DNA of 64,000 bases from Chthonomonadales bacterium (GTDB lineage Bacteria > Armatimonadota > Chthonomonadetes > Chthonomonadales > Chthonomonadaceae), in assembly GCA_038217285.1 (NCBI GenBank), contig JBBQPO010000002.1:11483-75482 (forward strand), in the 5' to 3' direction. A model generated the notes under the pieces. That model saw only the letters and a list, made by a program, of their open reading frames with translations, searched no databases and had not been told where the DNA came from. Positions 11,363-38,244 of this stretch are shown here, in pieces. How positions within the stretch are numbered: the stretch's first letter is position 1; each line of letters begins with the position of its first letter. The position numbers and the translations under genes are program-made.

Positions 11363-11428
11363 GGGTGAATGCTAGAATCTGCCGGTATGCCCCAGGCGTA
11401 CAGCGCGCAGGGGAGGGTACCTTCTCCA

Positions 11429-18303: not shown

Positions 18304-18334
18304 GGAACCAAAATGGCGTCGTATTCATAGTGTC

Positions 18335-18384: not shown

Positions 18385-18449
18385 GACTGTCGAAGGGATG
18401 TCGCTCTGCCGATCCTCCCTTAATTCCCGACACAAGGAGGGCAGGATGG

Positions 18450-18845
18450 ATGGTAACTGCTACTGACCCCGCTTGTGACCACTGCCATCGGCTGTTCGAC
18501 GGTCACCCCTGCATCATCTCGTTCGGATTCACCCAGTTCCGCTACTGCGGGCGCCTCTGCCTCATAGACGCCGAGGAGGAACGTGCACAAAGATCGCGAG
18601 CCGAGGAGTACTCGCTCCTGCGACACCGGACTCGCCATTGGAAAGTTGTGGATGGGAACGGCGACATCGTGTGCGTTACCCTCTACCGCAAAGGTGCTGA
18701 GGAAGTAATTCGGCGACTACGCCGCCGTAAGGCACCACCTTTCCGCTCCGCGACTGGTGTTTCTGCCTCAAAATCAGCTTCTGCACCGACCGAACGCTCC
18801 ATAGAACCGCTATACCGCCAAAAGGTGTGCGCCAACGCGGCGTAA
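18450..18845 (+). CDS. Hypothetical protein with N-terminal Zn-finger-like Cys cluster
   Basis: CDHC...CGRLC; RHWKVVDGNGDIVCVTLYRKGAEEVIRRL; AAGGAGG RBS. Confidence 0.7.
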   Translation: MVTATDPACDHCHRLFDGHPCIISFGFTQFRYCGRLCLIDAEEERAQRSRAEEYSLLRHRTRHWKVVDGNGDIVCVTLYRKGAEEVIRRLRRRKAPPFRSATGVSASKSASAPTERSIEPLYRQKVCANAA

Positions 18846-18877
18846 GGCCATTCTGCTGCTGATTACGCTCCCTTCTC

Positions 18878-18911
18878 GCCCGTATGCGTCATGCCACATA
18901 CGGGCTTTTCG
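18878..18911 (+). terminator. Intrinsic terminator
   Basis: GCCCGTATG...CATACGGGC + TTTT. Confidence 0.7.
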
Positions 18912-18954
18912 ATATCCAGTGCCTTCCTCCTCTAATCGCTGCTCTGCTCCTTCT

Positions 18955-19004
18955 GGTGCCTGTACGCAACATCTCCTGTCGCCTTGTCCCTGCGCTGTTA
19001 CGCT
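18955..19004 (+). promoter_or_regulatory. Cassette promoter copy 3
   Basis: GGTGC-N6-GCAAC at 18955; CTGTCG at +21; TACGCT at +44. Confidence 0.65.
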
Positions 19005-19065
19005 CATTATCGCTCTGCCACTCTCGGCAAGCACCCCCTGAGCATCGACACAAAGGAGAAGATGT

Positions 19066-21134: not shown

Positions 21135-21332
21135 ACGTGTCAGGCGCCTTCATAGGCCAATATCGGGTAGTGGGAAATGCAAACGCTTGTGGCGCGTGCA
21201 TGCAACGGAACGGGCTGTAGCTGTTTCGTTTTCGCTACGCTACTCCGTGAAAGAGCGTTGCGCGTTCAAATTTCCGAAGCGCAGCACGAACCGCTCTTTG
21301 ACAATCCCACTACGGGAATAAGGAGTATCGAT

Positions 21333-23946: not shown

Positions 23947-24165
23947 ATGTATGCAACTCTGATCCGTCCGCAAGCATTACCTGCGCCACCCCGTATACCG
24001 CCTCCGCCTGCCCCAAGGCTGATCGCGGCGGGGGCCGCAGATCCCGACGAGGAGGCGCGCAACGCCTCCATCGAAGCTCTGCTGGCACTCCTCGACGATG
24101 GTGAAACCGAGAACGGCGTGGATTACTCGGAAGGCGCGTTATCACCAAACGGATGCCTGTGGTAG
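23947..24165 (+). CDS. Small Pro-rich/acidic hypothetical protein
   Basis: AGGAG RBS downstream of the cassette promoter. Confidence 0.55.
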   Translation: MYATLIRPQALPAPPRIPPPPAPRLIAAGAADPDEEARNASIEALLALLDDGETENGVDYSEGALSPNGCLW

Positions 24166-24329
24166 ACGCAAAAAAGGCTAGGAAAGCACCAACTTCCCTA
24201 ACCTCCTGTACCACTCCTGACGGGAATACCGCCGCTTGATAGCATAGTATACCCCGTCTTTCCTACTCCCGTGGTCGCCTGAACAGAACTATGTTTAGGC
24301 GACCACACCGCATCTTATGGAGAGAACCG

Positions 24330-24641
24330 ATGAAGCATACGACACTATCGCAGCCACAAAACGACGTGCTGCCTACCCAACCGCTTGCCATCACCATCCC
24401 GGAGCCGACACGCGACAACGTGGCGTTTCGAGCACTCATTCGGCAAGTCATCCCAATGCTCCAGTGTCCTGAAGCGCACAGTCCAGCGGCGCGGCACCAA
24501 CTTGCGTCAACGCTCATCCAGGCACTTGGTCTGCCTCAGTCTGACACGACCGAACCACAGCAGGAAGCAATGCCACCCCACACCGATGCGGAGGCACCGT
24601 GTGCGTATGAACCGGGGTGCGACAGTGCGGAGTGGCCCTAA
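24330..24641 (+). CDS. Hypothetical protein
   Basis: GGAG RBS; preceded by a 15-bp near-perfect inverted repeat (24271-24306). Confidence 0.55.
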   Translation: MKHTTLSQPQNDVLPTQPLAITIPEPTRDNVAFRALIRQVIPMLQCPEAHSPAARHQLASTLIQALGLPQSDTTEPQQEAMPPHTDAEAPCAYEPGCDSAEWP

Positions 24642-24659
24642 GACGCAAGGAGGTGAGAG

Positions 24660-24887
24660 GTGCGATGCACCCTGCACGAGATCATGGTTGCGGAGGGTGC
24701 GCGCATGCTCCGCACTGGCCTGTACGACTATGGATGCATGCCACACGCCTTTCTGCGCCGCGAGGCTGAGGTATGGAGCGTCTGTGAGGAGGTGCAGCAT
24801 GCGTGGCTTCGGGGCGAAATTATCTCTCCCTTAGCCGTGGACCTTCTCTGGGAGGTGGTCTGGCGGCTACGGGCGCGAATCCAGTAG
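24660..24887 (+). CDS. Hypothetical protein
   Basis: AAGGAGGTG RBS, GTG start. Confidence 0.55.
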   Translation: MRCTLHEIMVAEGARMLRTGLYDYGCMPHAFLRREAEVWSVCEEVQHAWLRGEIISPLAVDLLWEVVWRLRARIQ

Positions 24888-24913
24888 GACTGTTTCTCAC
24901 GAAGGGAGGAATC

Positions 24914-25345
24914 ATGAACGAATCGCACCTCATGCAGGCTTGGCAACTTGGATTTCCAGATCGACACACTGCGCTGGCAGCCGTCCTTGATGCTATGGAA
25001 TTGGACCCGATCCGGAGGGAGGAAGGGGCTGGCCGAAGCGAACGGCAGTGGTGTAGTACCCACGTCAACTGCCGCATCATCTCTGTCTACACCTTCTTTC
25101 CAAGTCCCTACGCGAAGTTGGCGGACTTGGACGACACGATCAAAGAACGCTACACGGTTGCGACCGGAAGCCAGTGCCGCAGTGAGGTTCCAGATGCTCG
25201 GACGCACACAGGCTACGAAGAGGACAATACCTTCTACCTGGAGTTTCGGACTCTAGAAGAGGCTGTCTGCTTCTGCCTGGATGACCCTTATGCCCCAATG
25301 GAGATCGCACTCCACCGCACCCAGCAGGCCGTTCCGCACCCATAG
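24914..25345 (+). CDS. Hypothetical protein
   Basis: GGGAGG RBS, ATG 24914. Confidence 0.65.
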   Translation: MNESHLMQAWQLGFPDRHTALAAVLDAMELDPIRREEGAGRSERQWCSTHVNCRIISVYTFFPSPYAKLADLDDTIKERYTVATGSQCRSEVPDARTHTGYEEDNTFYLEFRTLEEAVCFCLDDPYAPMEIALHRTQQAVPHP

Positions 25346-25409
25346 GAAACCAGCACACACGACGCCTGCGCTGGACTTCCGGCAGGTACCACCTCAAAAA
25401 GGAGACACT

Positions 25410-25880
25410 ATGCGAGAGATACTGCCGCTCTTTGTCGGCTACCGAACATTGGAGGATTGGTTACAGGCGATTCTCCCTGATTCGCTGATCCTGGCCATGC
25501 CACTCGTCGAGCCGGGATTGGAGCAGTCCGGCATGCGGACCGATACCCTTGTCGTACTGTGCCAACACATCGACGCAAGCGGACATGTCCACTACTGTCG
25601 TCTGCGAGCAGCCAGTCTGCCCCGTTGTTACGGCGAGCCATTCTCTGCGGACTGGCGGGAGCGCGAAGCGGCCTGGCACTCGCTGTGGGACGCCGTGCAG
25701 GAGATCCTCCGGGAGCGCGACCTGACGTACCGATGCGCGACCGTGGCTGTACCGACGCACCTACGGTTCCTGGAAGCGCGGGCCGAAGGCATCGCCTTCG
25801 ATCCCGACACGAAACGGTTCGGGCGTCTAGGCGCAGAGGTAGTGAGAGCCAACATCTTCGAAGGAGAACTGAAGCGATGA
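25410..25880 (+). CDS. Hypothetical protein
   Basis: AAGGAG RBS, ATG 25410; stop overlaps the MutS-I start. Confidence 0.65.
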   Translation: MREILPLFVGYRTLEDWLQAILPDSLILAMPLVEPGLEQSGMRTDTLVVLCQHIDASGHVHYCRLRAASLPRCYGEPFSADWREREAAWHSLWDAVQEILRERDLTYRCATVAVPTHLRFLEARAEGIAFDPDTKRFGRLGAEVVRANIFEGELKR

Positions 25881-26185
25881 ACATTCTTATAGAGCAGTAC
25901 CACCAGACATGCACCGAGTTCCCGCAGGCGGTCGTGCTCATGCGGGTTGGGGACTTCTTCGAAGCCTACGGCGAAACAGCAAAGCTACTTGCAGAAACGT
26001 GTGGGCTGACGCTCACTGAGCGTGACGGCATTCCGATGTCTGGCATCCCTCACCACATGGCGGAAAAGCGAGTGGCACAGCTTGTCGCCAGCGGCAGGCA
26101 AGTCATTCTCATGGAGCAATCTGAAGATCCGCGCGGGAAAGCTCCCGGCGAAATCGCACGACACCGTGTGCAATTCACCCCGTAA
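25877..26185 (+). CDS. Stand-alone MutS domain I (mismatch-recognition domain)
   Basis: EQY...FPQAVVLMRVGDFFEAYGETA...CGLTLT...IPMSGIPHH...LVASGRQV...EQ; about 102 aa, no ATPase. Confidence 0.85.
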   Translation: MNILIEQYHQTCTEFPQAVVLMRVGDFFEAYGETAKLLAETCGLTLTERDGIPMSGIPHHMAEKRVAQLVASGRQVILMEQSEDPRGKAPGEIARHRVQFTP

Positions 26186-26263
26186 CGGTCTGCGTTCTGA
26201 ACACAGGACAGGAGTGTATGGTGGGCCGCGCATACCTGGCCCACGCCGGGAGAGGAACATTAG

Positions 26264-26715
26264 ATGAGCGAGCACTGGCTCCCGTTTGCACCTACGGGGC
26301 AGGTCATTACCAGCTTGCCCAACACCCCAGACGGAACCGTCTGGGCGAACAATCGCTACATCGTAGTGGTGCGCTACTGCGGCGAACACGCGACGACCGG
26401 GCCGCTAATCTGGCTGTCGATCAAGAGCGTCGATAATGACACTGGCACGACTCGCGCGATATGCAGCGCATCAAGAATGAGTTGGTGGGTGAGGAAGCCG
26501 AAGGCGTGGAACTCTATCCAACAGAAAGCCGCCTCGTCGACACCGCGAACTAGTTTCATCTCTGGGTGTTTCCGCACTTTCGGTTTCCGTTCGGGTTTAG
26601 TGAGCGATTGGTGTCGGAAGGCACCGCGCATACCGTGCAACGCCCATTCGACCCTGAACACCACCCGGCCGACCTGACTGACGTGCAACTAATAGTTGAG
26701 CCCACTGCCTACTGA
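26264..26715 (+). pseudogene. Disrupted phage/ICE-type conserved protein (frameshift plus premature stop)
   Basis: WLSIKSVDND continues in another frame near 26440 as HDSRDMQRIKNELVGEEAEGVELYPTESRLVDTAN*FHLW, with TAG at 26551-26553. Confidence 0.7.
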
Positions 26716-26763
26716 GTTGCGAAGCAAAGCAGGGGTCCGGTTCAGGGACCTATTGACCGTTTT

Positions 26764-26795
26764 GCCCGTCCTCCGTGTGAAGGGCGGGTTTTTCG
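26764..26795 (+). terminator. Intrinsic terminator closing the cassette array
   Basis: GCCCGTCCT...AGGGCGGGT + TTTT. Confidence 0.65.
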
Positions 26796-26893
26796 TATGC
26801 AGAGGGAGTGTGGCCATGCGGTAGAGCGATATGGTCGTCATAGAGGCATGGGGCAGCCAAATTTGTTCAACGTGCTAGATCGTCAGAGCCCCA

Positions 26894-29800
26894 TTAAGGG
26901 CGGAGGTCGCCGTGTTCATCTGTCGCAAGTGCCAACGCAAACGATACCGCGTCATCCAGGGACATGTGAATGCCGCGGTGCCACGCACCTGCGAAATCTT
27001 CGGCAGTCAGCTGGCTGTGCGCTTGGTCACGAGCGGCTTTGTGCCCGGCGCGCTCGGTGAACGGCTGGTTCAGTTTGTACTGTCGATAGGTCTGTTCCGC
27101 ACTGGCGAGTAACACGGTTGCTTGGGGTACTCGGTTCAGCGCAAGTTCCAACTGGGCTCCGCGGGTGAATCCCCAGGCAAGGGCGAGCACCTGTCCTAAT
27201 TCCCAAAATATTCGCATACTTTCTCTGAAGTAGGTTCGCGCCTCGGCGAAATTCTGCTCGGCTATGGCGATGGGGATGAGATTATTCTTCGTCCAGGCGA
27301 TATCTGTCTGGTAACCTATCTTCTGTCGAATCGCGAGGCTATCGTTGTAGTAGCGGCGTGATGCACGCAGGTCGCTGCGGAGCATTTCGATATAGCCTAA
27401 GCTATTGTAGAGGCTTGCGATCTCATCTCTGTGGTCCGCTTCGCCCAGTTCCCTCCAGCGCTGGAGACTCTGTTCCGCGTACTGAAGGCCGAGTGCAATA
27501 TCACCACGATCACAGGCGACCCAGGCAAGGATATCTAACGTACGGGCTGTCTCGGGTCCATTACCGCTGCTATGATAAAAGCTCAGACAGGTTTCTAGGA
27601 GGCCTTGCGCTTTCTCGGTATTGCCTTGCACACGATGAACTTCGCCAAGGCGCTCCCACAGGCGTAGTGTTTGATCAACGTTGTCACTTTCAATGGCTGC
27701 CGCTTCTTCGTAGTAGGAAAGCGTTGCACTATAGTTCGAGTGCAAGCGCTCCAGAGCGCCAGCTCCACAGAGAAGGCTTCGCCGCGTCGCGTCTGAGAGT
27801 TCTCTACGATGTGGCAAGACGCGCTCTATCCAGCGACGCCATTCCTCCCAATGGTTGCAGTGATTCCAGTAGTCAAACAGGGTAATACCGAACTGCACCT
27901 CTGCTTCGCGATCTGCGGTGCTCTGCGCAAGGTGCAACATGACACACATGATGTTCTCATGTTCCGCGTCGATCTGCCGCCGCCCGGTCGGCGAAGGGCT
28001 TCCCGACGCCACTCGCGACCGCACGAAGTCCTGGTAGTACGCTGCATGACGTGTGGCGACGACGGCAGCTAAATCACCTGATTGGGGCGCCAGGCAGTCA
28101 TCGGCAAATAGGCGTAACGCTTCTTTCATTGCATAACGCGATTGGCCTTCTTGCATGATAAGTGAACACTGGATCAGATCACTAGTCTTCGCCAGTGCTT
28201 CTGTCGGAGAACTATCCCAAATAGCTGCGGCGGCTTCGAGCGTCCACCCGCCACAGAAGTACGCAAGGGCCAAGAAGCAGGGTTTGAGTTCATGCGATAG
28301 AAGATCGAAGTTCCATTGAAAAGCAGTACGCAGACTCAAGTGACGACGATCTCTCACATGATTCTGTATAGTCAGCGATTCCAGGGATTCAGTCTGTTTC
28401 AGCATGTCTTCTGGAGTTAACACACTGATTTTCATTGCGGCCATCTCAAGAGCAAGCGGTAAGCCACTTAAACTGCAGATCACCCGAGCGATAAGAACAA
28501 CGTTTTCAGGAGTTATTCTAAACGCAGCCTGTCGCGCTTGCGCACGAACCTCAAATAAGCTCACGCTCTCATACTGCATGATCTGCTCGTACGTATCTCC
28601 CGCTTTTGGGGTAGCCATCGGATTAATCGGGATCAATGTTTCCTGGGCGATTTGCATTGAGCGCTGTGAAGTAACAATGCAAAATAGTGCAGGGCAATGT
28701 TCGAGCAATTCTACGATTATCGTGTTGCAGGATGGAGTAAGGTGCTCAAGATTATCAAGGACGAGCAGCCACAATCCGGTGCGTAACTTATAGGCTACTT
28801 GGAGGAAGAGATCGCCACCCTGCTCGATGCCGAGAGCAGTAGCTATACGGAGAAGCAGTTGCTCTGGCTCGGTAACGTCTGCTAGTGAAATGAATCGGGT
28901 GATAATGCTGGCCTCAGCCTTCAGCCTCTGAATGAATTCCTTCGCAATTCGGGTTTTCCCAGAGCCTGCCATTCCGAACAGCGTAAGTAAGCGTGGACGG
29001 CGATTTGCCGGACCCATCCATTCCTTGCGCGAGTGAAAGTGTCGCTCAAAGGTAGTAGTAAGTGTTCCGAGTTCAGTAGCACGGCCGATAAAGGGGGTAA
29101 GGTCGTCTCCGAGAAGGTTCGTTTGTGGAATACGCGGTACGGTAAGTTCTGTGAGAGAGTGGGAAGCAAGGTGTGCATCTGCGCGGAGAAGGTCGTCGTG
29201 GGGGGTTTTATGCCTATGCGCTTGGGCTGGTGGCAAATATAGACTGTCTGTAGAAGTGAATGGTTGGCCGCCCGTTAAAATGAGACGGTTTAATTCCTCG
29301 TAGTGAACCTCAAAGGTATCGTCATAGAGAAGATCGTCTTCAAGCGTAACCTTAAATATTTTCAAGCGCTCAAAGTAATATTTCGCTTCATCGTAGTGCC
29401 GCAGGGCGATGTTTACCTTTACAAACTCATAGAGCGCGCCGTAATACAGGCTTCTATGCATATTCCGAAGGGCCAGAAAGTGGCGGCTCGTTGTGGTGTC
29501 ACTGTCGAACTCGTAGCCACTACCAAAATCACCGCCATACAGACTTATAGCTTCCTGCAACACATCGGCCGCTTGCAACTCATTAGCCGCATGAACCCGG
29601 TTTGTACACAGGTCCTTAAACTGCTGCGCATCCACGACGATGTGATCGAGCGCAAGGCCGACTGTTCCTGAAGTCGTAGTCTGAATTACGTCCTCTACCG
29701 TGCCAGCCTTAGCCTCAAAAATGCGTCGCACACGCCGTAATTGCTCTCTGAGGTTGTCTAGCTGTGTCTTCCCCTCTTGATTTGGCCACAGGAGCTCTCC

Positions 29801-29962
29801 CAAAACGCCCCTCGTCAGTGGTAGGCCGTCGTTGGCAGCGATACCCGCCAGGTAGATGAGTAGCTCGCCCGTCTTCGGTGCGATTTTAGTTGGCTCATCC
29901 CCGACACGTTGTACTACAAGGGAACCCAAGAGACGAATTGTCCAGCGTCGTCCTTCTTCCAT
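26894..29962 (-). CDS. SARP/AfsR-like regulator: wHTH-BTAD + NB-ARC-like ATPase + TPR repeats
   Basis: IRLLGSL...ELLIYLA; FIGRATEL, GMAGSGKT, LLVLDNLEHL, LSGLPLALEMAA, RHLSLR.AF.W; C-terminal TPRs. GGAGGAGGTG RBS before ATG 29962. Confidence 0.9.
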   Translation of the reverse strand: MEEGRRWTIRLLGSLVVQRVGDEPTKIAPKTGELLIYLAGIAANDGLPLTRGVLGELLWPNQEGKTQLDNLREQLRRVRRIFEAKAGTVEDVIQTTTSGTVGLALDHIVVDAQQFKDLCTNRVHAANELQAADVLQEAISLYGGDFGSGYEFDSDTTTSRHFLALRNMHRSLYYGALYEFVKVNIALRHYDEAKYYFERLKIFKVTLEDDLLYDDTFEVHYEELNRLILTGGQPFTSTDSLYLPPAQAHRHKTPHDDLLRADAHLASHSLTELTVPRIPQTNLLGDDLTPFIGRATELGTLTTTFERHFHSRKEWMGPANRRPRLLTLFGMAGSGKTRIAKEFIQRLKAEASIITRFISLADVTEPEQLLLRIATALGIEQGGDLFLQVAYKLRTGLWLLVLDNLEHLTPSCNTIIVELLEHCPALFCIVTSQRSMQIAQETLIPINPMATPKAGDTYEQIMQYESVSLFEVRAQARQAAFRITPENVVLIARVICSLSGLPLALEMAAMKISVLTPEDMLKQTESLESLTIQNHVRDRRHLSLRTAFQWNFDLLSHELKPCFLALAYFCGGWTLEAAAAIWDSSPTEALAKTSDLIQCSLIMQEGQSRYAMKEALRLFADDCLAPQSGDLAAVVATRHAAYYQDFVRSRVASGSPSPTGRRQIDAEHENIMCVMLHLAQSTADREAEVQFGITLFDYWNHCNHWEEWRRWIERVLPHRRELSDATRRSLLCGAGALERLHSNYSATLSYYEEAAAIESDNVDQTLRLWERLGEVHRVQGNTEKAQGLLETCLSFYHSSGNGPETARTLDILAWVACDRGDIALGLQYAEQSLQRWRELGEADHRDEIASLYNSLGYIEMLRSDLRASRRYYNDSLAIRQKIGYQTDIAWTKNNLIPIAIAEQNFAEARTYFRESMRIFWELGQVLALAWGFTRGAQLELALNRVPQATVLLASAEQTYRQYKLNQPFTERAGHKAARDQAHSQLTAEDFAGAWHRGIHMSLDDAVSFALALATDEHGDLRP

Positions 29963-30007
29963 CTCACCTCCTCCAGATATACGCCGCTTCAATATCTTAC
30001 GTGCCTC

Positions 30008-30040
30008 TACGACGTGTTTACGCCGTGTGGACGCCCTTAC
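30008..30040. promoter_or_regulatory. 11-bp direct repeats, candidate SARP boxes
   Basis: TACGACGTGTT / TACGCCGTGTG / GACGCCCTTAC starting 30008, 30019, 30030. Confidence 0.5.
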
Positions 30041-30310
30041 ATTACCCTATAGGCAACATACTCGGTTCCCCGCTGCATACCAGGAAGAACCGCAAAGACT
30101 GACATCTTTGCGGCCCGGAATAGTAGCGCACCAAGGAGAACGGCGCCACTATAGATGCACCTGACGAGAGTTCTGACCCTCTCGGCCATGTGCGCCCTGA
30201 CACTACGCCGTTCGTTCGCTCTCGTCAAGCACTTCCTTGGGGCTCTCCTACCTCTTCGTGGTCTCCATCACCCGTGATGGGTGCAGTGTCCGCCGACCAA
30301 GGAGACCCCG

Positions 30311-31192
30311 ATGCACTCACACCCGCTCGAGATGACGCTCACGGCGCTTGCCCAGCGCCTGACCGATGCTGCTGACCTCGTCATTGTGCAGAGCCACGTT
30401 GCCCAGGGCAACTACCAATGTGCCGTCGCTGGCTCGGGCCGCGTCGCCCAGATTGTAGATCAGACCCCCGAACAGCTGATCGCCGACCACGTTGCAGCAG
30501 CGGGGCAACGCTTCAACCAGATGTGCTTCCAGCCGCTCGCAGCTTCGGGGCAGGTTCTCGGAACGGTCGAACTGTGCAACTGGTCTACAGAACGGCTGGC
30601 GTACCTCGATCTTGCCGCCTTCGCCGCAGCCGCCGGGATTGCCCTCGCGGCTGCCGCACAGGCCACCCAATTCCAGCGTCTCGCCTGGATTGATCCGCAC
30701 ACCGGTGCCTATACCCTTACCTGGTTTACTGAGTTTCTCACGGACAACATCGCTGCCACTGCTAACATGCATCGGCCCATATCGCTCATAGCCTGGGATG
30801 TTGATAACCTCAAGATCCTCAATGAGTGGTTTGGCCATGCGCGTTGTGACCAGCTGCTCACTCTCCTAACCTGCACCCTGCAGCGCCATCTGCCGACGGG
30901 CAGTATCGCACGGTTTGCCGGAGACGAGTTTGTCGTCTGCTTGCCCGGTGTATCCGCCGTAGATGCCCAGGCGCTCGCCTGTCACTTGCAACTGCTCATC
31001 GATACTACCCCGTTTCGCATCGCCATTCCCGCCGCCTCTCCGAACGCTGAGCAGGACGTATGCCTGGGAATTTCCATCGGGAGTGCCAGTTATCCTCATG
31101 ACGCTCCTGACGGAGAGGGCCTCCTCGAGCACGCCATGCTCAGCATGCGAGCCGACAAAGAGCGGCGGCGCGCCGAGGCGGTCCAATCCTAA
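30311..31192 (+). CDS. GGDEF-domain (AGDEF) diguanylate cyclase with a GAF-like N-terminal region
   Basis: DPHTGA, WDVDNLKILNEWFGHARCDQLL, ARFAGDEFVV, ISIGSASYP; AAGGAG RBS. Confidence 0.85.
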   Translation: MHSHPLEMTLTALAQRLTDAADLVIVQSHVAQGNYQCAVAGSGRVAQIVDQTPEQLIADHVAAAGQRFNQMCFQPLAASGQVLGTVELCNWSTERLAYLDLAAFAAAAGIALAAAAQATQFQRLAWIDPHTGAYTLTWFTEFLTDNIAATANMHRPISLIAWDVDNLKILNEWFGHARCDQLLTLLTCTLQRHLPTGSIARFAGDEFVVCLPGVSAVDAQALACHLQLLIDTTPFRIAIPAASPNAEQDVCLGISIGSASYPHDAPDGEGLLEHAMLSMRADKERRRAEAVQS

Positions 31193-31335
31193 ACCGATTT
31201 TTCTGTCCATCCACTCTCCCGCAACGAGCTAAGCTCTCTGCACGACTGCCTGGGACACCGTCGGTTTCTCCTCGCTGGGAAATGAGGCGTCCCACGACCT
31301 TACATCCATCTGATAGGTTTTTAGAAAGAGGATCT

Positions 31336-31899
31336 ATGTCTACTATCACCCGGACGGCCACAGAAACCGTCAGCATCACGGCGCAAGACGTGCGCAAAGT
31401 CATGTCAAAGTGGTCGCGCGAATCGCGAAAGATCTGCCAAGCCGCAGCACACGCCTCTCCAGACTTCGACGCCGATACCGCAGAAATGGAGGTAGCAATG
31501 CTCGTGCTCCAGGAAGCCATCTGCGCGTTTAGCCTCGAATTTTATGTGGAACAGGAATTGGTTCGGGAATACGTATTCCGAATCTGCGACGATGGTACGC
31601 TCACTGAGACTGGTCCCTCGGCCGACAACCCGCCGACCGGCTATATCCCCGAGAAGGCGAGGGTGCGTTTGACCGTTACGCCCAATCCACAGGTCACCAA
31701 AGAGCATCGAGACCACTGGTTTGAGATGCTGGGCTGGGCAGATGCTCGCCTCCTTACAAAACCGGAAGGCCTGCGTACTCAGACCTATGGTTCGTTCGCA
31801 TCCGGTGGATTTGGCCTGCAACGCACCCTCCGTGTGAACCCGAAGTTCGACCAACCGGTCGCGCCGACGCAACTGATCCAGAAAGGAAGCCGCTGGTGA
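31336..31899 (+). CDS. Bacterial HORMA-domain protein (Cap7/HORMA1-like)
   Basis: S/T-rich N-terminus MSTITRTATETVSITAQDVRKV, DNP in the central loop, C-terminal GSFASGGFGLQRT resembling the Cap7 TYSAGG.SL.RT end (recalled); 187 aa; beside a Trip13-like ATPase. Confidence 0.72.
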   Translation: MSTITRTATETVSITAQDVRKVMSKWSRESRKICQAAAHASPDFDADTAEMEVAMLVLQEAICAFSLEFYVEQELVREYVFRICDDGTLTETGPSADNPPTGYIPEKARVRLTVTPNPQVTKEHRDHWFEMLGWADARLLTKPEGLRTQTYGSFASGGFGLQRTLRVNPKFDQPVAPTQLIQKGSRW

Positions 31900-32297
31900 A
31901 ACACATTTTTCTTATCCTCAGGAGCCCCGCAGGCGATGAACTAGGACGCCTGCCGCTAACCGCTGTGGTTGTCATGGCGGCTGGTGAACCCGCGCCAACA
32001 GGCACATGCCTGCCCCGGCGTGCCCAGTTCGAGACCCTCATGTGCGATCTCTACACGGTTCTCCAGGTCAACGGTCTCCGTTCTGCGCAGACGCCTGCGG
32101 CAGTCGAATTCGCCGCTAGCCTAGCTCTCCTGCACGAAGGAGACGATGAGGTGACCATTCCCCTCATCGTCGAGCCCTTGACACTACCTCATGCACAACT
32201 GGATGCTGGAGCAGCGGGCACGCCGGAACAAGGTGCCATGCTTCGCTGGGATGATCTGCTGCTCCTCACCGACACCCAGGAGGCCGACCATGCGTAA
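31896..32297 (+). CDS. Hypothetical protein, translationally coupled between HORMA and the AAA+ gene
   Basis: GTGA overlap upstream, 8-nt overlap downstream. Confidence 0.65.
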   Translation: MKHIFLILRSPAGDELGRLPLTAVVVMAAGEPAPTGTCLPRRAQFETLMCDLYTVLQVNGLRSAQTPAAVEFAASLALLHEGDDEVTIPLIVEPLTLPHAQLDAGAAGTPEQGAMLRWDDLLLLTDTQEADHA

Positions 32298-33402
32298 CAC
32301 TCCCTCTCATCCCGCTCCCGTAACCTGGGTGGTGACGCTGCGACAGGGCACGCCCGATAGCCAGGGGCGGCTCGCTGAACTACTCCGCCCGAATCTGGAA
32401 CGCACCCTGGCGGCGGCCCCGGAAACACGCGAGGCAACGTATGAAACTCCGTTTGGCACCCTCTCCCTGCATCGTCAGGGCAGTAGCTCACCCGGAGCAC
32501 CCATTCGCCTCACCTTCGCTGCAAACCATATGCCTCGTCCCGAAGCCGGCACAGCGGGACAGGCAGACGGCCTGCCACTCCTTACCCTCCCCGATGCAAC
32601 CATACAGAACCATGGGGCCTGCCTTATTGGCTTAGAGGAACTCCATCAAAGCGTCCTCTACCACTTCAACGTGCGCTGGGATGGGGCGCTGGAAGCGTGG
32701 AGCCAGCGCACCGGACAGGCGATCCCTCCTGGCCTCCATAGGTCGGTTACGGGAACACCCGCCCTCTTCATCTTCGCGGGCGACCCCGGAACCGGTAAGT
32801 CAGTGTCTGCTGCTACCCTCGCAGACCGGTACTGTCGGCAGCAGGATATCACGGGACATCTGGTTCGCCTGGGTACCGAACTGCGCGGCGATGGCACCGT
32901 TAATTCCGGCGGCAATCGGCTCCAAGCGAGCTTCGCGCAGTTGGGACGCCTACCCGATGCCGATCTCAAAATGCTGGTTCTTGAAGAAGCCGAAGCGATC
33001 GGCATGCGGCGCAGCGAGGGGCAGAGCCATTTTGAAGATCGGGCACAGACAAGTACCCTGCTGCAATGTCTCGACGCCTATGGCGGCCGGCGGCGCTTTG
33101 TGGTGGTGATGACCACAAATGTGGCGGATGCACTGGATGCAGCGATTATTCGCCGGGCAGTGCCTGTCACCTTCGCCCGCCCGAACCAGCACGCACGATG
33201 CATCCTGCTTGCGGACTGGTTGCCTGACGTTCCGGCAGAAGCGCTTGATTGGGCGGCTGAGGTAAGCGAGGGCATGACCGGCAGCGACATGGTGCGGACG
33301 CTTATGGGACTGTTCACCACAGCAGTTCAGACGGCTCAGGCGGTACCGCAGGAGCAGGTTCTGGAAGCACTGTTCAGCGCTCCGCGCACAGGGAGGGTCT
33401 GA
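32290..33402 (+). CDS. Trip13/Pch2-like AAA+ ATPase (CBASS Cap6-like)
   Basis: LIGL...LEAWS, PALFIFAGDPGTGKS, LRGDGTV, LVLEEAEAIGMRR...HFEDRA (cf. Cap6 DEADALAQSR...HHEDRAG, recalled), MTTN...LDAAIIRRA...FARPN. Confidence 0.85.
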   Translation: MRNTPSHPAPVTWVVTLRQGTPDSQGRLAELLRPNLERTLAAAPETREATYETPFGTLSLHRQGSSSPGAPIRLTFAANHMPRPEAGTAGQADGLPLLTLPDATIQNHGACLIGLEELHQSVLYHFNVRWDGALEAWSQRTGQAIPPGLHRSVTGTPALFIFAGDPGTGKSVSAATLADRYCRQQDITGHLVRLGTELRGDGTVNSGGNRLQASFAQLGRLPDADLKMLVLEEAEAIGMRRSEGQSHFEDRAQTSTLLQCLDAYGGRRRFVVVMTTNVADALDAAIIRRAVPVTFARPNQHARCILLADWLPDVPAEALDWAAEVSEGMTGSDMVRTLMGLFTTAVQTAQAVPQEQVLEALFSAPRTGRV

Positions 33403-33403
33403 C

Positions 33404-34021
33404 ATGCCCGGCCAACACCTGATCCCATACGATGTGCGTGACGAAGTACCTGAGCGGCCCAGTGGCTTCTTCGGGGCTGGCATGAGCCAGTTCCAGACAT
33501 GGTGTGAGGAACGCAAGAACGATGCCGAAGTACGGCGCCTCCAGAGCCAGATGCGCCTCATCCAAGCGCGACAGGCACTCCTCGATGCGCAGTACCAGGC
33601 TGTGCGCTCGCTCCACCAAGCTGCGGCTGCGGCAGAAGAGGCAGCAGCCGATCACAGTCTGCGCCGCACCCTGCGGGAGGTAGCGCCGGGGGAAGCCCAC
33701 CGCATCCTGCGTATCGCGCTGGAGGAAGAAGTCATCCTCCTCCAGAGGGAGCAACTCCGCCGTTATCGGCTGAGCGAAGGCGTGATCACCCTGCCGGAAG
33801 GGGGGATGGGAAGCGGTACGCCGGGGGGCTTGGAGGTTGACCTGAGCACCCAGGAGATTGAGCGCTTAGCCCTGCGGGCGGTCATGCAGATCCAGACGCT
33901 CCCGGCTATGGAACATGAAGCCGCCTTCTCCCGCTGGACCCAGGAGCTTGCGGGGCAGTTTCCAGCCTTTGCGATCGCTGAGATCACAAAGCGAGCGAGC
34001 GAGCTGCGCGCGCTACTGTAG
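33404..34021 (+). CDS. Hypothetical helical/coiled-coil protein
   Basis: Starts 1 nt after the AAA+ stop; Ala/Glu/Arg/Gln-rich. Confidence 0.7.
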   Translation: MPGQHLIPYDVRDEVPERPSGFFGAGMSQFQTWCEERKNDAEVRRLQSQMRLIQARQALLDAQYQAVRSLHQAAAAAEEAAADHSLRRTLREVAPGEAHRILRIALEEEVILLQREQLRRYRLSEGVITLPEGGMGSGTPGGLEVDLSTQEIERLALRAVMQIQTLPAMEHEAAFSRWTQELAGQFPAFAIAEITKRASELRALL

Positions 34022-34043
34022 GAGGCGGTAGGCCTGAATGAAG

Positions 34044-34089
34044 CACTGGCCCGGGTTTTTGGTTGGGTAGCCAAGAGCACGGGCCAGTG
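34044..34089. repeat. Long hairpin upstream of the coupling-protein gene
   Basis: CACTGGCCCG (34044-53) / CGGGCCAGTG (34080-89), extended inward largely by G-T pairs. Confidence 0.6.
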
Positions 34090-34231
34090 TCCTCTCAAAC
34101 GATCTCGCAACCCTCCTATTTTGCCCGCGGTTTTTCGTGTGACTATATCTGGTTTTTCGCCTGGACGTGAGGGCTGTATCCGGCGTTCAGGCGGTCCTTG
34201 GTGAACCCCAAGAAAGGTACGAAATACGACG

Positions 34232-36070
34232 ATGGATCCGATCCAACTTGGCGTGTACGTGCGCTTCCCGCACAGCGACCATACGCTCGATATTATCGCG
34301 GAACCGCCGCAGGTGGCAGCATACACCACAACGCCGTGGAGTCGCGCATTTTTCTCCCAGCGGTTGGGAATCCCGGCACAAACACCGGCCCGCCCCGATG
34401 CATTGATTGCGCAGGTATCTGACAGTCAGCTTGCGCGACACAGTCTGTTGGTGGGTGGCTCGGGGTACGGAAAAAGCCGCCTCATTCACCGCAATGTTCT
34501 CTGCCACTTACTGGATGGCTGTTCGGTGCTCCTGCTTGATCCGAAAGGGGAAACCAAGGATAACCTGCTCGCTTGTTTGGTAGAGCTTGGCATACCACCC
34601 GAGCGGCTCACCTTACTCAATCCGCAGCACGCCGACAGCGTTCCTGGATGGAACCCCTTCAAAACGGGCCTTCCGGTTTCCCAGGCCGCAAACGACTTCG
34701 TGAACGTGCTCCAGCAGACCTCCACGAGCTGGGGACCGCGGCTGCAGGATTTGATTTCGAACAGCGGTATTATCGTCGGGGAGTACGGCCTGTCGATCTT
34801 TGAGCTGGCGCGGTTCCTGGTGCGGGAGGAGTACCGCGAGAGCCTGTTGCAGGTCCCAATCCAGCCACAAAACCCCATTGCCTTCGCCGAGGCCGTGAGC
34901 TTCTTCCGGGAGGAAATGTCCGCGTGGGGCCGTGCGGAGCGGGCGAACGCTATCGGGCCCGTGCTCACCCGTATCCGCGAGTTTCTGCGCTCCGCTTACC
35001 TGCGCCCACTCCTCTGTGCCGAGGAGAACACTTTTGATTTGGCCGAACTCTGGCGAAAACAATGTATCGTTGTGGTACACGTTGATCGCGCCGAACTCGG
35101 TGAAGCAGGGGCCCACCTCTTGGCGGGAACGCTCGCCAACCAGGCGTTTCGAACTGCTTTGCGCATGCCGGGGCGCAACCGGGTGCTGCTCGTTGTCGAC
35201 GAGTTGGGCCAAATGGAAGCCATGATGGGCCGTGCCCTGACCGACATCGTGACCGTTGCTCGCTCGCTCAATCTGCGCCTCTTGGTCGCCTGTCAGCACT
35301 TAGCCCAACTGTCCCAAGAGCTTCGGGAGGCGCTGCTGGCGAACTGCACCGTGCAGGGTTTTTTCAAGTTGGGATATGACGATGCCAAACTGGTGGCGGC
35401 CTCGCTCTCGGCCGGGGCACCTGCAACGATCCAGCGCTTTGTCGCGTCCTTCGACCCGGAGACCCAGACTACGTGGAGTCATCGAATCTGTGGAGGCGAA
35501 GGCCTTCCCCTACGGCTTCCCGAACCGCGCTGGGCGCACTTCGCGCAGGGTGGGCTCACCGGACGATCCGCCGTGCAGCGCCTCTTGGCGCTCGGAAAAA
35601 CTTCGAAACAGCCACGCCTCTACGTGCGCGCGGCCGATACGCAACAGCCGGTGGAACTTACCACCTACGTCTCGGGATTGCCCGATTCCGACTATAGTCT
35701 CGCTGGCCCGGCCCTTGAACTGGTGGTGACGTTTCCTCGGCCCCGCATCGCGAATGTCGAGCGGGTGACCGCAAGCGACGTGGCGAGCACCTGGATCCGT
35801 GAACTGCAGAACCTACCGGTCCAGCATATCGCGCTCCGGCTCGCTGGCACGGAGCCAGGTATTGTCAAGGTTTCCGACGTCACGATTCCCGAGCGCACCC
35901 CGGCGCTTGATGCCTACCTGGCCCGATCCTATGCCGCAAACGGCCAATCGGCGGCAGAGATCGCCCGCGTCTTGGCGGCGCGCACCGCCGCAGTTGAGCG
36001 GCTGGCTGCCGGTATCGCTACCGGTACATCCCCGATACAGGAGGACCACCATGACGGCAGCATCTGGTAA
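34232..36070 (+). CDS. TraD/TrwB/VirD4-like coupling ATPase (no TM segment seen)
   Basis: RHSLLVGGSGYGKS, LLDPKGE, WNPF, SWGPR, LLVVDELG, ARSLNL...ACQHLAQL, LLANC. Confidence 0.85.
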   Translation: MDPIQLGVYVRFPHSDHTLDIIAEPPQVAAYTTTPWSRAFFSQRLGIPAQTPARPDALIAQVSDSQLARHSLLVGGSGYGKSRLIHRNVLCHLLDGCSVLLLDPKGETKDNLLACLVELGIPPERLTLLNPQHADSVPGWNPFKTGLPVSQAANDFVNVLQQTSTSWGPRLQDLISNSGIIVGEYGLSIFELARFLVREEYRESLLQVPIQPQNPIAFAEAVSFFREEMSAWGRAERANAIGPVLTRIREFLRSAYLRPLLCAEENTFDLAELWRKQCIVVVHVDRAELGEAGAHLLAGTLANQAFRTALRMPGRNRVLLVVDELGQMEAMMGRALTDIVTVARSLNLRLLVACQHLAQLSQELREALLANCTVQGFFKLGYDDAKLVAASLSAGAPATIQRFVASFDPETQTTWSHRICGGEGLPLRLPEPRWAHFAQGGLTGRSAVQRLLALGKTSKQPRLYVRAADTQQPVELTTYVSGLPDSDYSLAGPALELVVTFPRPRIANVERVTASDVASTWIRELQNLPVQHIALRLAGTEPGIVKVSDVTIPERTPALDAYLARSYAANGQSAAEIARVLAARTAAVERLAAGIATGTSPIQEDHHDGSIW

Positions 36071-36959
36071 TCCCGGCGGGAAAGAGCCGCGCCGCCAGCG
36101 GTTTGCCCGCCGCCCGGCACCGGTCACCCTGACGCCGCAGAAGGTGGCGCTCCTGCGCCAGATTGCCGACTACGGCCTAGCTACGGTCGTGCAGTTGGCG
36201 AAGCTCGTCGGCCCTTCGGAGAAGAGCGTGCGGCGGCATCTTCGGGAACTCTATGACTCGGGACTCACAGACCTGATCGCGATACCGAGAGCGGCCTTAG
36301 CGGCGCCGGGTGAGGTTAATGATGCGCGCCTGCTGTACGGTTCGGCACCGAATATTGCCTGCTTGAAGAGGGCCGGACAGAAGGCACTCATCGCCGCAGG
36401 GTACCCCGACACACCAGCACCGCTCCCGCCGTATGGACCGCGCAACTGGGCCTTTGTGGCGCACGCGCTCGCCATCAGGGACGTTCGCCTCTGGCTCGAA
36501 CTCTCTGCCCGTTACGTCTCTGGTCAGACCCTCGAAACCTGGAAGTGCGGGGGTGCTGCGGCGATCGATCTGGAGCGGGTACGGGCACCCCAGAAACTCT
36601 ACCCTGATGCCTGGTTTACCTACCGGGTCGGTGAGCAGATCCTCGTCGGCTTGCTGGAAGTTGATCGCGGCACTGAACGGGGTAACACCCGCTGGCAGGA
36701 AAAGCTCACTGGCTACCATGCGCTCTTCGAGAGCGGACGCCTGGCAGCGGTCACGGGCTACCGCAACGCGCGAATTATTGTGGTAACCTCGAGTGAGCGG
36801 CGGCGCGATAGCCTCGCGACGTTCATTCAGCAGCATGCTGATCCGACGCTTGCCAGTCGGTTTTGGTGTGCTGGGGAGACGCTGATTGCAACTCCTGGCC
36901 TCGACACCGTCGGATGGCGGCAACCAGGACAGCAAATGCTTCGCGCACTACTGAAGTAA
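36051..36959 (+). CDS. Replication-relaxation (Replic_Relax) family protein
   Basis: N-terminal wHTH, HALAIRDVR, PDAWF, LEVDRGTE, KLTGY; overlaps the coupling-protein stop. Confidence 0.85.
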   Translation: MTAASGNPGGKEPRRQRFARRPAPVTLTPQKVALLRQIADYGLATVVQLAKLVGPSEKSVRRHLRELYDSGLTDLIAIPRAALAAPGEVNDARLLYGSAPNIACLKRAGQKALIAAGYPDTPAPLPPYGPRNWAFVAHALAIRDVRLWLELSARYVSGQTLETWKCGGAAAIDLERVRAPQKLYPDAWFTYRVGEQILVGLLEVDRGTERGNTRWQEKLTGYHALFESGRLAAVTGYRNARIIVVTSSERRRDSLATFIQQHADPTLASRFWCAGETLIATPGLDTVGWRQPGQQMLRALLK

Positions 36960-37143
36960 GAGAGGGGTGAAGAGTAGAAAGGCCGCACTTCAAAAAGAGC
37001 GTCTACTATCCTGATCCGGAAGTGCCTGTCAGCGAGGGAAATCCTTACCAGCAGGCATTTCCCGATATGTTCTACTGCAGTGCTACGCTGCCAATACTCG
37101 TCTGCCTCGCCGCACTACGGGATGCTGGAAGTGAAGGAACTAA

Positions 37144-38244
37144 AGACTGATTGCGAAATAGCGGTCTCGGCTTCGCCTCAAGCTAACGTTTCCGTTTCTT
37201 GAAGGAAGAAAATTCGGGATCCTCAGACCGCTATGCCAATTCAAACCTACCGGTGGCGCGGAAATTGAGCAACCCGCTCACCACGCAAAAGATGTCTTCG
37301 TGCCCGCTCTGCGGTCCGCGCCACAGACCCGCGAGGCAGCCGAACTTCTGAAGACGAGCGAAGTGATGCTCGACCGGCATCCGCAACACCGAGAGGAGAT
37401 GGTTGTACGCTTTGCCCAAAATCGTCACCTTCTGACCGCGTTTCTTCTTGATCGGAGCCGCCACATCCGCGTCAGGATACGCTTTCTCGGTACCTTCGTA
37501 CCCCTTGTCCAGACGGACTTTCACCGCCAACGGGATCCGATGCATGACTCCCGAGGCGCGCAGAACGGTCATGTCATGCAGGCTGCCCGGTAAGCCACCG
37601 AACACATGAAGCACCAGGTTTTTGGTCGCCACGATCTGCGTTTTGATCGTGTGGTCGTGCTGCTTCCCACTGTAGGCGTGCTTGCGTTTGAGCTTGTCCG
37701 CAGGCTGTGGCACTTCCTGTTCGGTGGCGTCGATCAACACCTCGGCGAAGTCAGGATGGGCCTTGAGCAACTCTTGGAGCGTGTTGATGCGCTTGGGCTT
37801 TTTGACCGGCTTCTGGTTGTCGGGCTTGTCCTCGGCGCAATGGACGATCGTTCGCAAGGGAGCGTCGCGCAAAGGAATGGGCAGGACTTCCAGGAGAACG
37901 GGCATTAAGCGTAGCTTGAACTCTCGGCAGATGTTGCTCTCGTCCAGATCGAAGAGGTAGCTGAGCAGGCTCTGACTACAATAGAGGCGCAGGTAGATCA
38001 GTCCCATCAACAAGCGTTCGGGCAGAGACAAAGCAAATGGTCGTCCGGCTCCGATTTGTCGCTCACGTTGGTCGTGATTGCGTTGGTGATGTTGGGCTTG
38101 TTCATAGGCGAGAGTGACCTGTGCCAGCACCTGATCGAACTCAACAATCGTGAGGCCGGTGAACTTTTGGAAGTGACGCGGCTTACGCCGCAGTTTGGTT
38201 AAGGTAATCATGCCACTCAGGTTACCTTATTTCGCAATTGATCT
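37144..38244. mobile_element. IS5-family (ISL2-like) insertion sequence, 1101 bp
   Basis: TIRs AGACTGATTGCGAAATA / AGATCAATTGCGAAATA (14/17), flanked by TAA on both sides (37141-43, 38245-47). Confidence 0.88.
37231..38211 (-). CDS. IS5-family DDE transposase (HTH_Tnp_4 + DDE_Tnp_4)
   Basis: FQKFTGL, IDATE, YSGKQHDHTIKTQ, HD, DKGY, RMPVEH. Confidence 0.92.
   Translation of the reverse strand: MITLTKLRRKPRHFQKFTGLTIVEFDQVLAQVTLAYEQAQHHQRNHDQRERQIGAGRPFALSLPERLLMGLIYLRLYCSQSLLSYLFDLDESNICREFKLRLMPVLLEVLPIPLRDAPLRTIVHCAEDKPDNQKPVKKPKRINTLQELLKAHPDFAEVLIDATEQEVPQPADKLKRKHAYSGKQHDHTIKTQIVATKNLVLHVFGGLPGSLHDMTVLRASGVMHRIPLAVKVRLDKGYEGTEKAYPDADVAAPIKKKRGQKVTILGKAYNHLLSVLRMPVEHHFARLQKFGCLAGLWRGPQSGHEDIFCVVSGLLNFRATGRFELA

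Follow-up and report, generated by a model that had tools for sequence, protein, structure and literature searches.

Eukaryotic HORMA-domain proteins control protein assemblies on chromosomes and at kinetochores. Among described bacterial systems, the one closest to the locus reported here is type III CBASS, a signalling system against phages that is based on cyclic oligonucleotides. According to the available text of 10.1101/694695, its CD-NTase, a nucleotidyltransferase resembling cGAS and DncV, is both the client of the HORMA protein and the adapter that docks HORMA on the AAA+ ATPase Trip13. In the Escherichia coli (Ec) system, the same text describes how Pch2/Trip13 holds HORMA by its N-terminus: pore loop 1 (G-R-V) contacts the main chain, and a ladder of pore-loop-2 His residues binds Ser or Thr at alternate positions of the HORMA N-tail, an alternation that the HORMAs of 1-HORMA operons have kept. 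In the parts of the literature open to search, bacterial HORMA/Trip13 pairs appear only in the context of CBASS and never together with a relaxase or coupling protein. An earlier depiction is possible, and the Fig. 5 legend in the accessible portion of PMC6601020 names two classes of genes, 'transposase-related' and 'unknown', within operons of HORMA-Trip13. Here we analysed a 64,000-nucleotide (nt) stretch of a Chthonomonadales bacterium genome (GCA_038217285.1, contig JBBQPO010000002.1, positions 11,483 to 75,482; hereafter the window), in which a HORMA/Trip13 pair stands without a CD-NTase in an operon with genes for a VirD4-like ATPase and a Replic_Relax protein. The link between HORMA and these genes is real as far as conserved operon structure and one gene fusion go. 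We put a little short of an even chance on the reading that the target of a messenger-free HORMA/Trip13 switch is here the module that mobilises an integrative mobilisable element (IME).

A check of open reading frames (ORFs) recovered all seven co-oriented genes that the original prediction had placed in this region, with coordinates and junctions as predicted:

30311 to 31192, plus strand: GGDEF-domain protein with the variant motif AGDEF (Pfam GGDEF, 5e-19), a locus-specific neighbour
31336 to 31899, plus strand: HORMA-domain protein of 187 amino acids (aa), assigned with an AlphaFold2 (AF2) model and Foldseek to a divergent bacHORMA_1 subfamily
31896 to 32297, plus strand: p133, a small alpha/beta domain with a disordered tail, with homologues in the same slot at other loci
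32290 to 33402, plus strand: Trip13/Pch2-like AAA+ ATPase of 370 aa (PADLOC TRIP13, 2.7e-39; Pfam AAA, 6e-12)
33404 to 34021, plus strand: p205, a coiled-coil-like, helical protein of 205 aa (alignment A5) that heads the triad
34232 to 36070, plus strand: soluble VirD4/TraG-like P-loop ATPase of 612 aa (Pfam TraG-D_C, 2.8e-6; TrwB_AAD_bind, 4e-4)
36051 to 36959, plus strand: Replic_Relax protein with a winged helix-turn-helix (wHTH) and a PD-(D/E)XK domain (Pfam PF13814, 7.6e-18, and HTH_5)

We refer to HORMA, p133 and Trip13 as the cassette and to p205, the ATPase and Replic_Relax as the triad. The genes overlap at the HORMA/p133 (4 nt), p133/Trip13 (8 nt) and ATPase/Replic_Relax (20 nt) junctions, and a 1-nt spacer separates the Trip13 stop from the p205 start. 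True gaps in the block follow the GGDEF gene (143 nt; its longest ORF begins at 30281) and separate the p205 and ATPase genes (210 nt).

Twenty loci were compared: the window, L004 (a metagenome contig), L094 to L097 and L137 to L150, with the second copy in genome G348 left out. L094 (G064:C2) and L095 both lie in genome G064, and L096 lies in G120. The order HORMA, p133, Trip13, p205, ATPase, Replic_Relax is found in five loci (the window, L004, L094, L095 and L097), with short or overlapping junctions and 1–37 nt between Trip13 and p205. Protein identities within this set are 29–46% for HORMA, 36–44% for Trip13, 32–45% for the ATPase and 36–49% for Replic_Relax. The arrangement is not a matter of chance, as the same order recurs in other genomes, and the conserved unit is six genes long, from HORMA to Replic_Relax, with the GGDEF gene outside it. 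HORMA occurs in six of the 20 loci, p133 in five and Trip13 in five. The expectation that the transfer-type genes would be conserved neighbours was borne out, the ATPase and Replic_Relax genes being present and co-operonic in 6/6 HORMA loci. The cassette has been retained while its proteins diverged to 30–45% identity, that is, through long co-inheritance.

The triad is far commoner than the cassette, and 14 of the 20 triads have no HORMA. The ATPase profile A6 matched 78 of 401 genomes of the phylum at E ≤ 1e-10, with about 20 near-full-length copies in 17 genomes; the distribution is patchy, and G064, G383 and G348 carry two triad copies each. The maximum-likelihood ATPase tree groups all six HORMA loci in a single supported clade (99/98) of eight rows, together with the cassette-less L141 and L148. 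The HORMA label changes twice on this tree compared with a mean of 5.3 after shuffling, and none of 500 shuffles gave a value as low. The cassette therefore entered the operon once, or at most twice.

It had been claimed that the window holds no CD-NTase, NucC, SAVED protein or other CBASS effector, and PADLOC, run on 10 ORFs of the window, indeed gave no match to any of these. SMODS (PF18144) and the PADLOC cyclase PDLC00808 were absent from the whole host genomes G000, G064 (98% complete, with two copies of the block) and G120, among them the window's own (6.2 Mb, 95% complete); in G383, the sole CD-NTase lies on another, unrelated contig. As a positive control, G265, one of the five genomes of the phylum that match the HORMA profile, carries a classical type III CBASS, and its cyclase was detected by the same searches. 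That system (L098, G265:C98, 9282 to 13439) comprises a cyclase, HORMA, TRIP13, a TIR effector and a DEDDh exonuclease, and both effectors were recognised in the control scan. We could also rule out that homologous loci normally carry a CD-NTase that was simply deleted here, since none was found at the HORMA-block loci. With its defining CD-NTase and effector absent, the window locus is not a CBASS. Something other than a CD-NTase must therefore be the client of HORMA and its adapter to Trip13.

One candidate named in the original prediction was the GGDEF protein, as a cyclase that replaces the CD-NTase and is switched by HORMA/Trip13. Its gene is co-oriented with the block, 143 nt upstream of it, and has no orthologue in four same-genus genomes, so that it arrived with the island. 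The protein matches TIGR00254 (6e-22) and has an N-terminal domain of about 120 aa without assignment. Its catalytic positions look largely intact: alignment with PleD showed the metal, Lys, Asn, Asp and Arg positions present, with the motif AGDEF and without an RxxD I-site. However, tblastn found a GGDEF relative in 0/19 other loci, and a Pfam scan of upstream ORFs in L004, L094, L095 and L096 showed none. The window has no effector of the type that responds to cyclic diguanylate, and the 143-nt gap contrasts with the overlaps at other junctions. The GGDEF gene is a locus-specific, incidental neighbour outside the conserved unit, and its service as the messenger synthase of this switch is hardly credible.

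A different partner is suggested by p205. The gene directly before that of the ATPase encodes a relative of this protein in at least 15 of the 20 loci, and the slot is occupied in the remaining five by an ORF of 197–336 aa without detectable similarity. The protein starts with a coiled-coil-like region, continues with a variable linker rich in Pro and ends in a conserved helical domain of about 70 aa; it matched nothing in Pfam or PDB, and profile searches against PDB and the ESM Atlas gave nothing usable. In L096, a single ORF of 391 aa (P0064) joins HORMA (residues 16–171, hhalign 99.2%) to p205 (residues 231–388, 96.4%). This locus has neither p133 nor Trip13, and its order is HORMA-p205 fusion, ATPase, Replic_Relax, tyrosine integrase. 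Its HORMA N-tail has lost the Ser/Thr ladder and retains one Ser in the first 16 residues. The fusion points to p205 as the client of HORMA.

The 187-aa protein, called HORMA-like in the original prediction, does have the HORMA fold. The AF2 model on the 31-row alignment A1 reached a predicted local distance difference test score (pLDDT) of 92.8. Foldseek against PDB placed it closest to 6p8v_H (E 2e-8, template-modelling (TM) scores 0.63/0.68), the HORMA of E. coli MS115-1 in the CdnC:Trip13 complex, and all top matches listed were HORMA proteins. A profile search against PDB retrieved the same chain at E 0.007. Pfam bacHORMA_1 (PF18138) aligned over the full length at 2.4e-7, with 31.2–31.6 bits under a cut-off of 35.6, and matched 16 of the 31 family members at E ≤ 1e-3 (best 2.4e-9). 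Judged by these scores, the window HORMA family is a divergent sister group of bacHORMA_1, outside the curated family. Alignment A1 comprises the window protein, its three close relatives P0002 to P0004 found by word search, and 27 of 44 representatives drawn from 1.84 billion proteins. The family is rare: it formed four clusters in a word-indexed protein search, and a search with the single protein found its own genome only, with 0/40 among relatives from the genus, family and order. The profile matched 5/401 genomes sampled from the phylum and 2/71 in the order of G064, and tblastn with HORMA against plasmids and phages gave no match. The N-tail is disordered. Within residues 2–17, Ser or Thr occupies seven of the eight positions of one phase and one of the eight of the other. 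Over the 31 family members the phase means are 5.58 and 1.74, which was reached by 0/2000 shuffles.

The prediction of a Trip13/Cap6-like AAA+ protein likewise held: the PADLOC TRIP13 model that matched the window protein at 2.7e-39 matched its counterpart in L094 at 3.3e-47. The protein carries an additional N-terminal region of about 100 aa. Walker A, Walker B, a G-x-V segment and the TTN and RR motifs are conserved in 11/11 Trip13-like sequences, and all 11 have an invariant His, in a loop RRSE..H.ED, 12–13 residues after Walker B. From its position, this His is probably equivalent to Ec His173, the pore-loop-2 His. Walker B reads EE in the window copy, its two closest relatives and L094, and DE in most others. 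We dropped the idea that the absent Phe in the window protein means loss of a pore-loop aromatic, as pore loop 1 of Ec Pch2 is G-R-V and has no aromatic residue (available text of 10.1101/694695). A search of genome contigs with the single Trip13 sequence found no related locus. Locus L003, from a genome-contig search with alignment A2, was spurious and sits inside a 702-aa ORF on the opposite strand. From a metagenome scan with alignment A3, 80 loci were kept, of which 79 were set aside as distant AAA+ proteins (23–36% identity), leaving L004 as the sole true relative; viral-contig scans with alignments A6 and A2 gave no match.

The HORMA-Trip13 pair looks working, because the Ser/Thr alternation of the N-tail and the invariant His match the grip of Ec Pch2, and HORMA would presumably be reset by the same mechanism as in CBASS. 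The alternative is that a type III CBASS, having lost its CD-NTase and effector, has left the cassette behind as a remnant that hitch-hikes or decays and has no functional tie to its neighbours. Decay would fit the odd NSGG in the window Trip13, a HORMA score under the Pfam cut-off, and the gene fragments (an ORF with MutS_I only) and insertion sequence (IS) element in the region. However, all ORFs are intact in five loci at 29–46% identity, the Ser/Thr ladder, Walker motifs and His are kept, no locus has a CD-NTase, and the same partners always follow. We consider a remnant improbable.

What follows the cassette resembles a DNA-transfer module. Replic_Relax stands directly after the ATPase in 20/20 loci; it scored 65.7 bits with PF13814 against a cut-off of 25.3, has an N-terminal winged helix (HTH_5), and conservation of its motifs H..RD, PDA.F and E.DRGTER reaches at least 90% over the 20 loci. 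The available part of PMC3424549 places Replic_Relax in the PD-(D/E)XK family. In that of PMC5357655, CONJscan types it as a MOB_C relaxase, and the streptococcal IMEs of class 8 have their genes compactly arranged as VirD4 coupling protein, MOB_C relaxase and integrase, in that order. By its profile scores, the window protein is a true member of this MOB_C-type family and a predicted relaxase/nuclease. The ATPase exceeded the cut-off for Pfam TraG-D_C (27.7 bits versus 22), fell just under that for TrwB_AAD_bind (19.8 versus 20.5), and matched the NCBIfam VirD4-like CD1115 family at 3.7e-14 (52 bits versus a cut-off of 250). Against plasmids and phages, tblastn found only distant matches to the ATPase (22–28% identity) and none to Replic_Relax. 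The extreme C-terminal tail of the ATPase, [DE]-D-G-S-[LIV]-x, is kept in nearly all 20 loci, with or without HORMA, and therefore belongs to the triad's own workings. In conjugation, the tail of TraD docks TraM; by analogy, the ATPase tail may dock p205 rather than HORMA.

A recombinase lies within 3 kb downstream of the triad in 6/20 loci. It is a tyrosine recombinase in L004, where it overlaps the Replic_Relax stop, and in L096, L140, L141 and L143, and a large serine recombinase in L097. In a type IV secretion system (T4SS) cluster on an Embleya plasmid, a replication-relaxation gene likewise comes after that for the coupling protein. We take the triad to be a mobility module because of its MOB_C family, the downstream recombinases, the Embleya precedent, its patchy and multi-copy occurrence, its absence in close kin and the repeated DNA beside it in L094. 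It behaves like the DNA-mobilisation module of IMEs in this phylum, and would presumably serve in DNA movement.

Between HORMA and Trip13 lies p133, with homologues in the same position in L004, L094, L095 and L097. Residues ~1–95 form an alpha/beta domain (AF2 pLDDT 72), followed by a disordered Pro-rich tail that ends in a short hydrophobic motif, conserved in character among the homologues. Foldseek against PDB gave no match at E ≤ 1e-3, and Pfam, NCBIfam, PADLOC, profile search against PDB and the ESM Atlas gave no family assignment. We rejected p133 as a HORMA-fold protein (hhalign probability only 2.6%, without support from Foldseek) and also beta-grasp-like matches, which at E 0.2–1 were not significant. 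Hydrophobic 7-mer closure motifs were selected for the HORMAs of E. coli and Pseudomonas aeruginosa (available text of 10.1101/694695). The p133 tail resembles these 7-mers, and on this likeness we speculate that p133 could be a closure-motif donor or adapter.

These observations suggest how the locus might work. The HORMA-p133-Trip13 cassette would have been inserted directly upstream into the operon of one triad clade, where HORMA would bind a peptide, change conformation and in this way switch the triad directly, without a nucleotide messenger. Its likeliest target would be the head protein p205, and the hydrophobic C-tail of p133 or another disordered segment could supply the closure motif. 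HORMA binding would hold the ATPase-relaxase machine on or off, in whichever direction control runs. As in type III CBASS, the reset would come from Trip13, which would draw the HORMA N-tail, with its Ser/Thr ladder, through the pore. The upstream protein with STAND and TPR domains might supply an input or control transcription. We judge the chances evenly balanced that this is a HORMA-Trip13 pathway of the eukaryotic type, one that directly gates the machine of p205, translocase and relaxase-nuclease without a messenger, with p133 as a new non-HORMA adapter or closure-motif donor. Of the proposal that the switch had been re-wired, the part stands in which the module works without a CD-NTase, the GGDEF branch has fallen away, and the link to the transfer genes is favoured by the 6/6 linkage and the fusion.

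The cassette could instead serve counter-defence, with the element-borne Trip13 and a decoy HORMA dismantling or titrating the HORMA:CD-NTase complexes of a recipient's type III CBASS. Trip13 is a negative regulator in CBASS (available text of 10.1101/694695), the cassette heads what appears to be a transfer operon, and type III CBASS does exist in the phylum (G265). On the other hand, the hosts G000, G064 and G120 have no CD-NTase to inhibit, and an internal target is suggested both by the fusion of HORMA to p205 and by the strictness with which the cassette is inherited along with a single triad clade. We found no precedent in the searchable literature, and regard counter-defence as quite improbable.

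Several observations weigh against a messenger-free switch on a mobilisation module. The link between HORMA and the triad may rest on one ancient insertion, not on six independent associations, and the HORMA-p205 fusion is a singleton on one 6-kb contig of a metagenome-assembled genome; a search for further fusions returned only the query itself. An integrase is missing from the window: the L004 integrase gave no tblastn match, and an IS element stands in its place. No att sites turned up, although no search was aimed at att repeats. There are no T4SS genes among the window ORFs scanned. No excised form was found, and no excision joint appeared in the sequencing runs, of which X1 may come from the source sample and X2 and X3 contain short contigs of 85–99% identity over HORMA, Trip13, ATPase and Replic_Relax; that the STAND/GGDEF part lacks cover in X2 carries no weight. 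After the G-x-V segment (G-T-V in the window), the window Trip13 has NSGG where 10/10 homologues have G[DAE]F[GSA], a difference from all 10 at three residues beside the putative pore loop 1. Canonical type IV coupling proteins have an N-terminal transmembrane anchor. In 19/20 members of the ATPase family there is no hydrophobic segment before Walker A; the highest 19-residue Kyte-Doolittle mean in that region is 0.66 in the window and below 1.6 in 19/20 homologues. The ATPase also fits PADLOC mad8 as well as it fits the conjugation models (6e-13 in the window; 5e-12 to 1e-14 in L004, L094 and L095), and the surroundings of the locus look like a defence island as well.

The last three of these points bear on a further explanation, in which the locus is a messenger-free defence or anti-plasmid system: HORMA, perhaps with the STAND/TPR protein, would sense a foreign peptide and license a translocase-nuclease effector together with p205, and Trip13 would keep it off as long as the cell is uninfected. 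According to the accessible text of PMC13662399, mad8 is the ATPase of MAD7-MAD8, an ATPase-nuclease defence module, and besides the mad8 fit in the window, L004, L094 and L095, weak HerA matches were seen for the L004 ATPase. The ATPase is soluble, the nuclease motif of Replic_Relax is intact, STAND/TPR genes adjoin HORMA in 4/4 loci with upstream sequence, the neighbours are island-like, and anti-phage activity is the sole known role of bacterial HORMA/Trip13. This is to be set against a Replic_Relax protein that, at 65.7 bits, is a solid member of a family typed as plasmid/IME relaxase, and against the recombinase that follows in 6/20 loci, with overlapping codons in L004. Moreover, 14/20 triads have no HORMA, so the triad must be able to work alone; diverged copies occur within one genome; and no PADLOC system model fits the whole triad. 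We rate a defence role as the strongest rival, though rather unlikely, and prefer a HORMA switch on a mobilisation module.

Three further features lie within or next to the block:

34044 to 34089, no strand: inverted repeat with 19-nt arms and an 8-nt loop, 23 nt after the p205 stop
37231 to 38211, minus strand: IS5-type DDE transposase (Pfam DDE_Tnp_4, 1.7e-19)
26894 to 29992, minus strand: STAND NTPase of 1032 aa with NB-ARC and TPR domains (Pfam NB-ARC, 7e-6; AAA_22, 4e-9; TPR_12, 2e-15)

The inverted repeat has a counterpart in L004 (7133 to 7168) with the same position and loop length, and among the inverted repeats of the 400 nt that precede the ATPase gene, the best one beats all 60 mononucleotide shuffles in 7/20 loci. 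It could be a terminator or attenuator, or a site like an origin of transfer (oriT). A promoter and terminator scan of 29800 to 37400 did no better than shuffled sequence.

A STAND or TPR protein is encoded upstream of HORMA in 4/4 HORMA loci with usable upstream sequence: NB-ARC with TPR in the window and L094, a Lon-like domain with NB-ARC and TPR in L004, and a TPR protein plus a separate STAND-type ATPase in L095. In L094, the divergent STAND NTPase gene lies 48 bp from HORMA. Such constant adjacency is unlikely to be due to chance; for scale, the window genome has 22 NB-ARC matches, and these hosts have 22–30 each. The upstream proteins show no mutual similarity by tblastn and are non-orthologous, and STAND genes also flank the HORMA-less triads of L141, L142 and L145. 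They may be regulators or sensors of the whole element. Elsewhere in the window, two AAA_35 STAND genes form a pair at 991 to 6376 on the minus strand, with WD40 repeats in one of them; a like pair with a SARP-type Trans_reg_C/BTAD head (L141:1676–7125) is directly upstream of a HORMA-less triad.

The block belongs to a strain-specific region. From 24000 to 37139 the window has no counterpart in four same-genus genomes, and further upstream the matches are scattered. Sequence in common with kin returns at the IS5-type transposase and, from about 39760, a tricorn protease gene. The transposase is multi-copy in same-genus genomes, marks the right edge of the strain-specific region and sits where related loci have a recombinase. 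Few long ORFs occur between 22.5 and 26.8 kb, where a 208-aa ORF (25559 to 26185) with MutS domain I only (1e-19) looks like a gene fragment in decayed DNA.

Defence-type neighbours across the loci include an MmeI-like enzyme, STAND NTPases, Ssp, type I HsdR, orphan methylases and Fic; orphan N6/N4 methylases, Fic and restriction enzymes recur near triads. In the window, the same strain-variable region encodes an MmeI-like restriction-modification enzyme of type IIL, in which all five MmeI domains are present (14531 to 17386), and has a separate N6_Mtase ORF (19066 to 20064). A weak VopS/Fic-like match (12626 to 13504; NCBIfam, 1.5e-4) has a 55%-identical relative in G002 beside a triad, and L097 has a clear Fic gene (3078 to 4184, 3e-16) after Replic_Relax. 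L094 encodes SspB (DUF4007, 5e-93) and an AAA_16 ATPase after its STAND gene (17165 to 19901), a phosphorothioation-type Ssp defence locus.

Other genes recur near triads as well. The 434-aa ORF at 21177 to 22481 has no family match and clusters with a DUF932-type protein of L094 and with ORFs close to the triads of L139, L143 and L144 (69% identity to G002); counting this one in the window, a DUF932-like gene occurs in five loci. A FeeM-like N-acyl amino acid synthase paired with a seven-transmembrane (7TM) protein (10499 to 12064, minus strand) is also found by the triad in L146 and L148, in L148 directly upstream of p205. The DNA beside Replic_Relax in L094 (3197 to 7057, about 3.8 kb, including a DUF932 gene) recurs at 65–83% identity on many short contigs of G345, G407 and G383 and is a multi-copy element that breaks assemblies.

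If HORMA/Trip13 does gate the triad directly, a messenger-free HORMA switch like that of the eukaryotic relatives exists in prokaryotes and acts on DNA-handling machinery. Such a circuit would be the first in bacteria to use HORMA outside CBASS, and either a new checkpoint on horizontal DNA transfer and conjugative mobilisation or a new direct-acting immune architecture. The six genes would also offer a tractable system for finding a natural closure-motif partner, which for the CBASS HORMAs is still unknown in the available text of 10.1101/694695. The p205-ATPase-Replic_Relax triad, newly defined here, is common in the phylum (17/401 genomes) and itself uncharacterised.

Compared with type III CBASS, the window HORMA is closest in fold to Ec HORMA and is the only one in its operon, as in 1-HORMA operons, and the AAA+ protein fits the TRIP13 model, with the Ser/Thr alternation in the HORMA N-tail and the His after Walker B. 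Unlike CBASS, all six HORMA-block loci lack a CD-NTase and a nucleotide-activated effector, an additional 133-aa gene lies between HORMA and Trip13, Trip13 has its N-terminal extension of about 100 aa, and the downstream partners are a VirD4-like ATPase and Replic_Relax. The methylation-associated defence system (MADS) offers a second comparison. As in its MAD7-MAD8 pair, an ATPase that fits mad8 (6e-13) is paired with a nuclease-fold protein, whereas Replic_Relax fits no mad model and the unit has no methyltransferase, kinase or MAD3/4.

CloDF13 MobB/MobC and pAD1 TraX are examples of what we take to be MOB_C mobilisation modules. The triad shares with modules of this type, such as those of IME class 8 in the available text of PMC5357655, the order ATPase, Replic_Relax, recombinase (the last in 6/20 loci), as well as the wHTH plus PD-(D/E)XK architecture of the relaxase and a patchy, multi-copy distribution. 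It differs in that its ATPase has no membrane anchor and that p205 heads the module. The eukaryotic HORMA-TRIP13 circuits (Mad2/p31comet, Rev7-shieldin and the meiotic HORMADs) have no sequence relation to the locus beyond the fold, and differ from it in that its partners are those of a prokaryotic mobile element and that p133, unlike p31comet, is not a HORMA-fold protein. The likeness is one of logic only: in the eukaryotic circuits, a messenger-free HORMA switch puts together or blocks a protein machine, often one that acts on DNA, and TRIP13 resets the switch with the help of an adapter.

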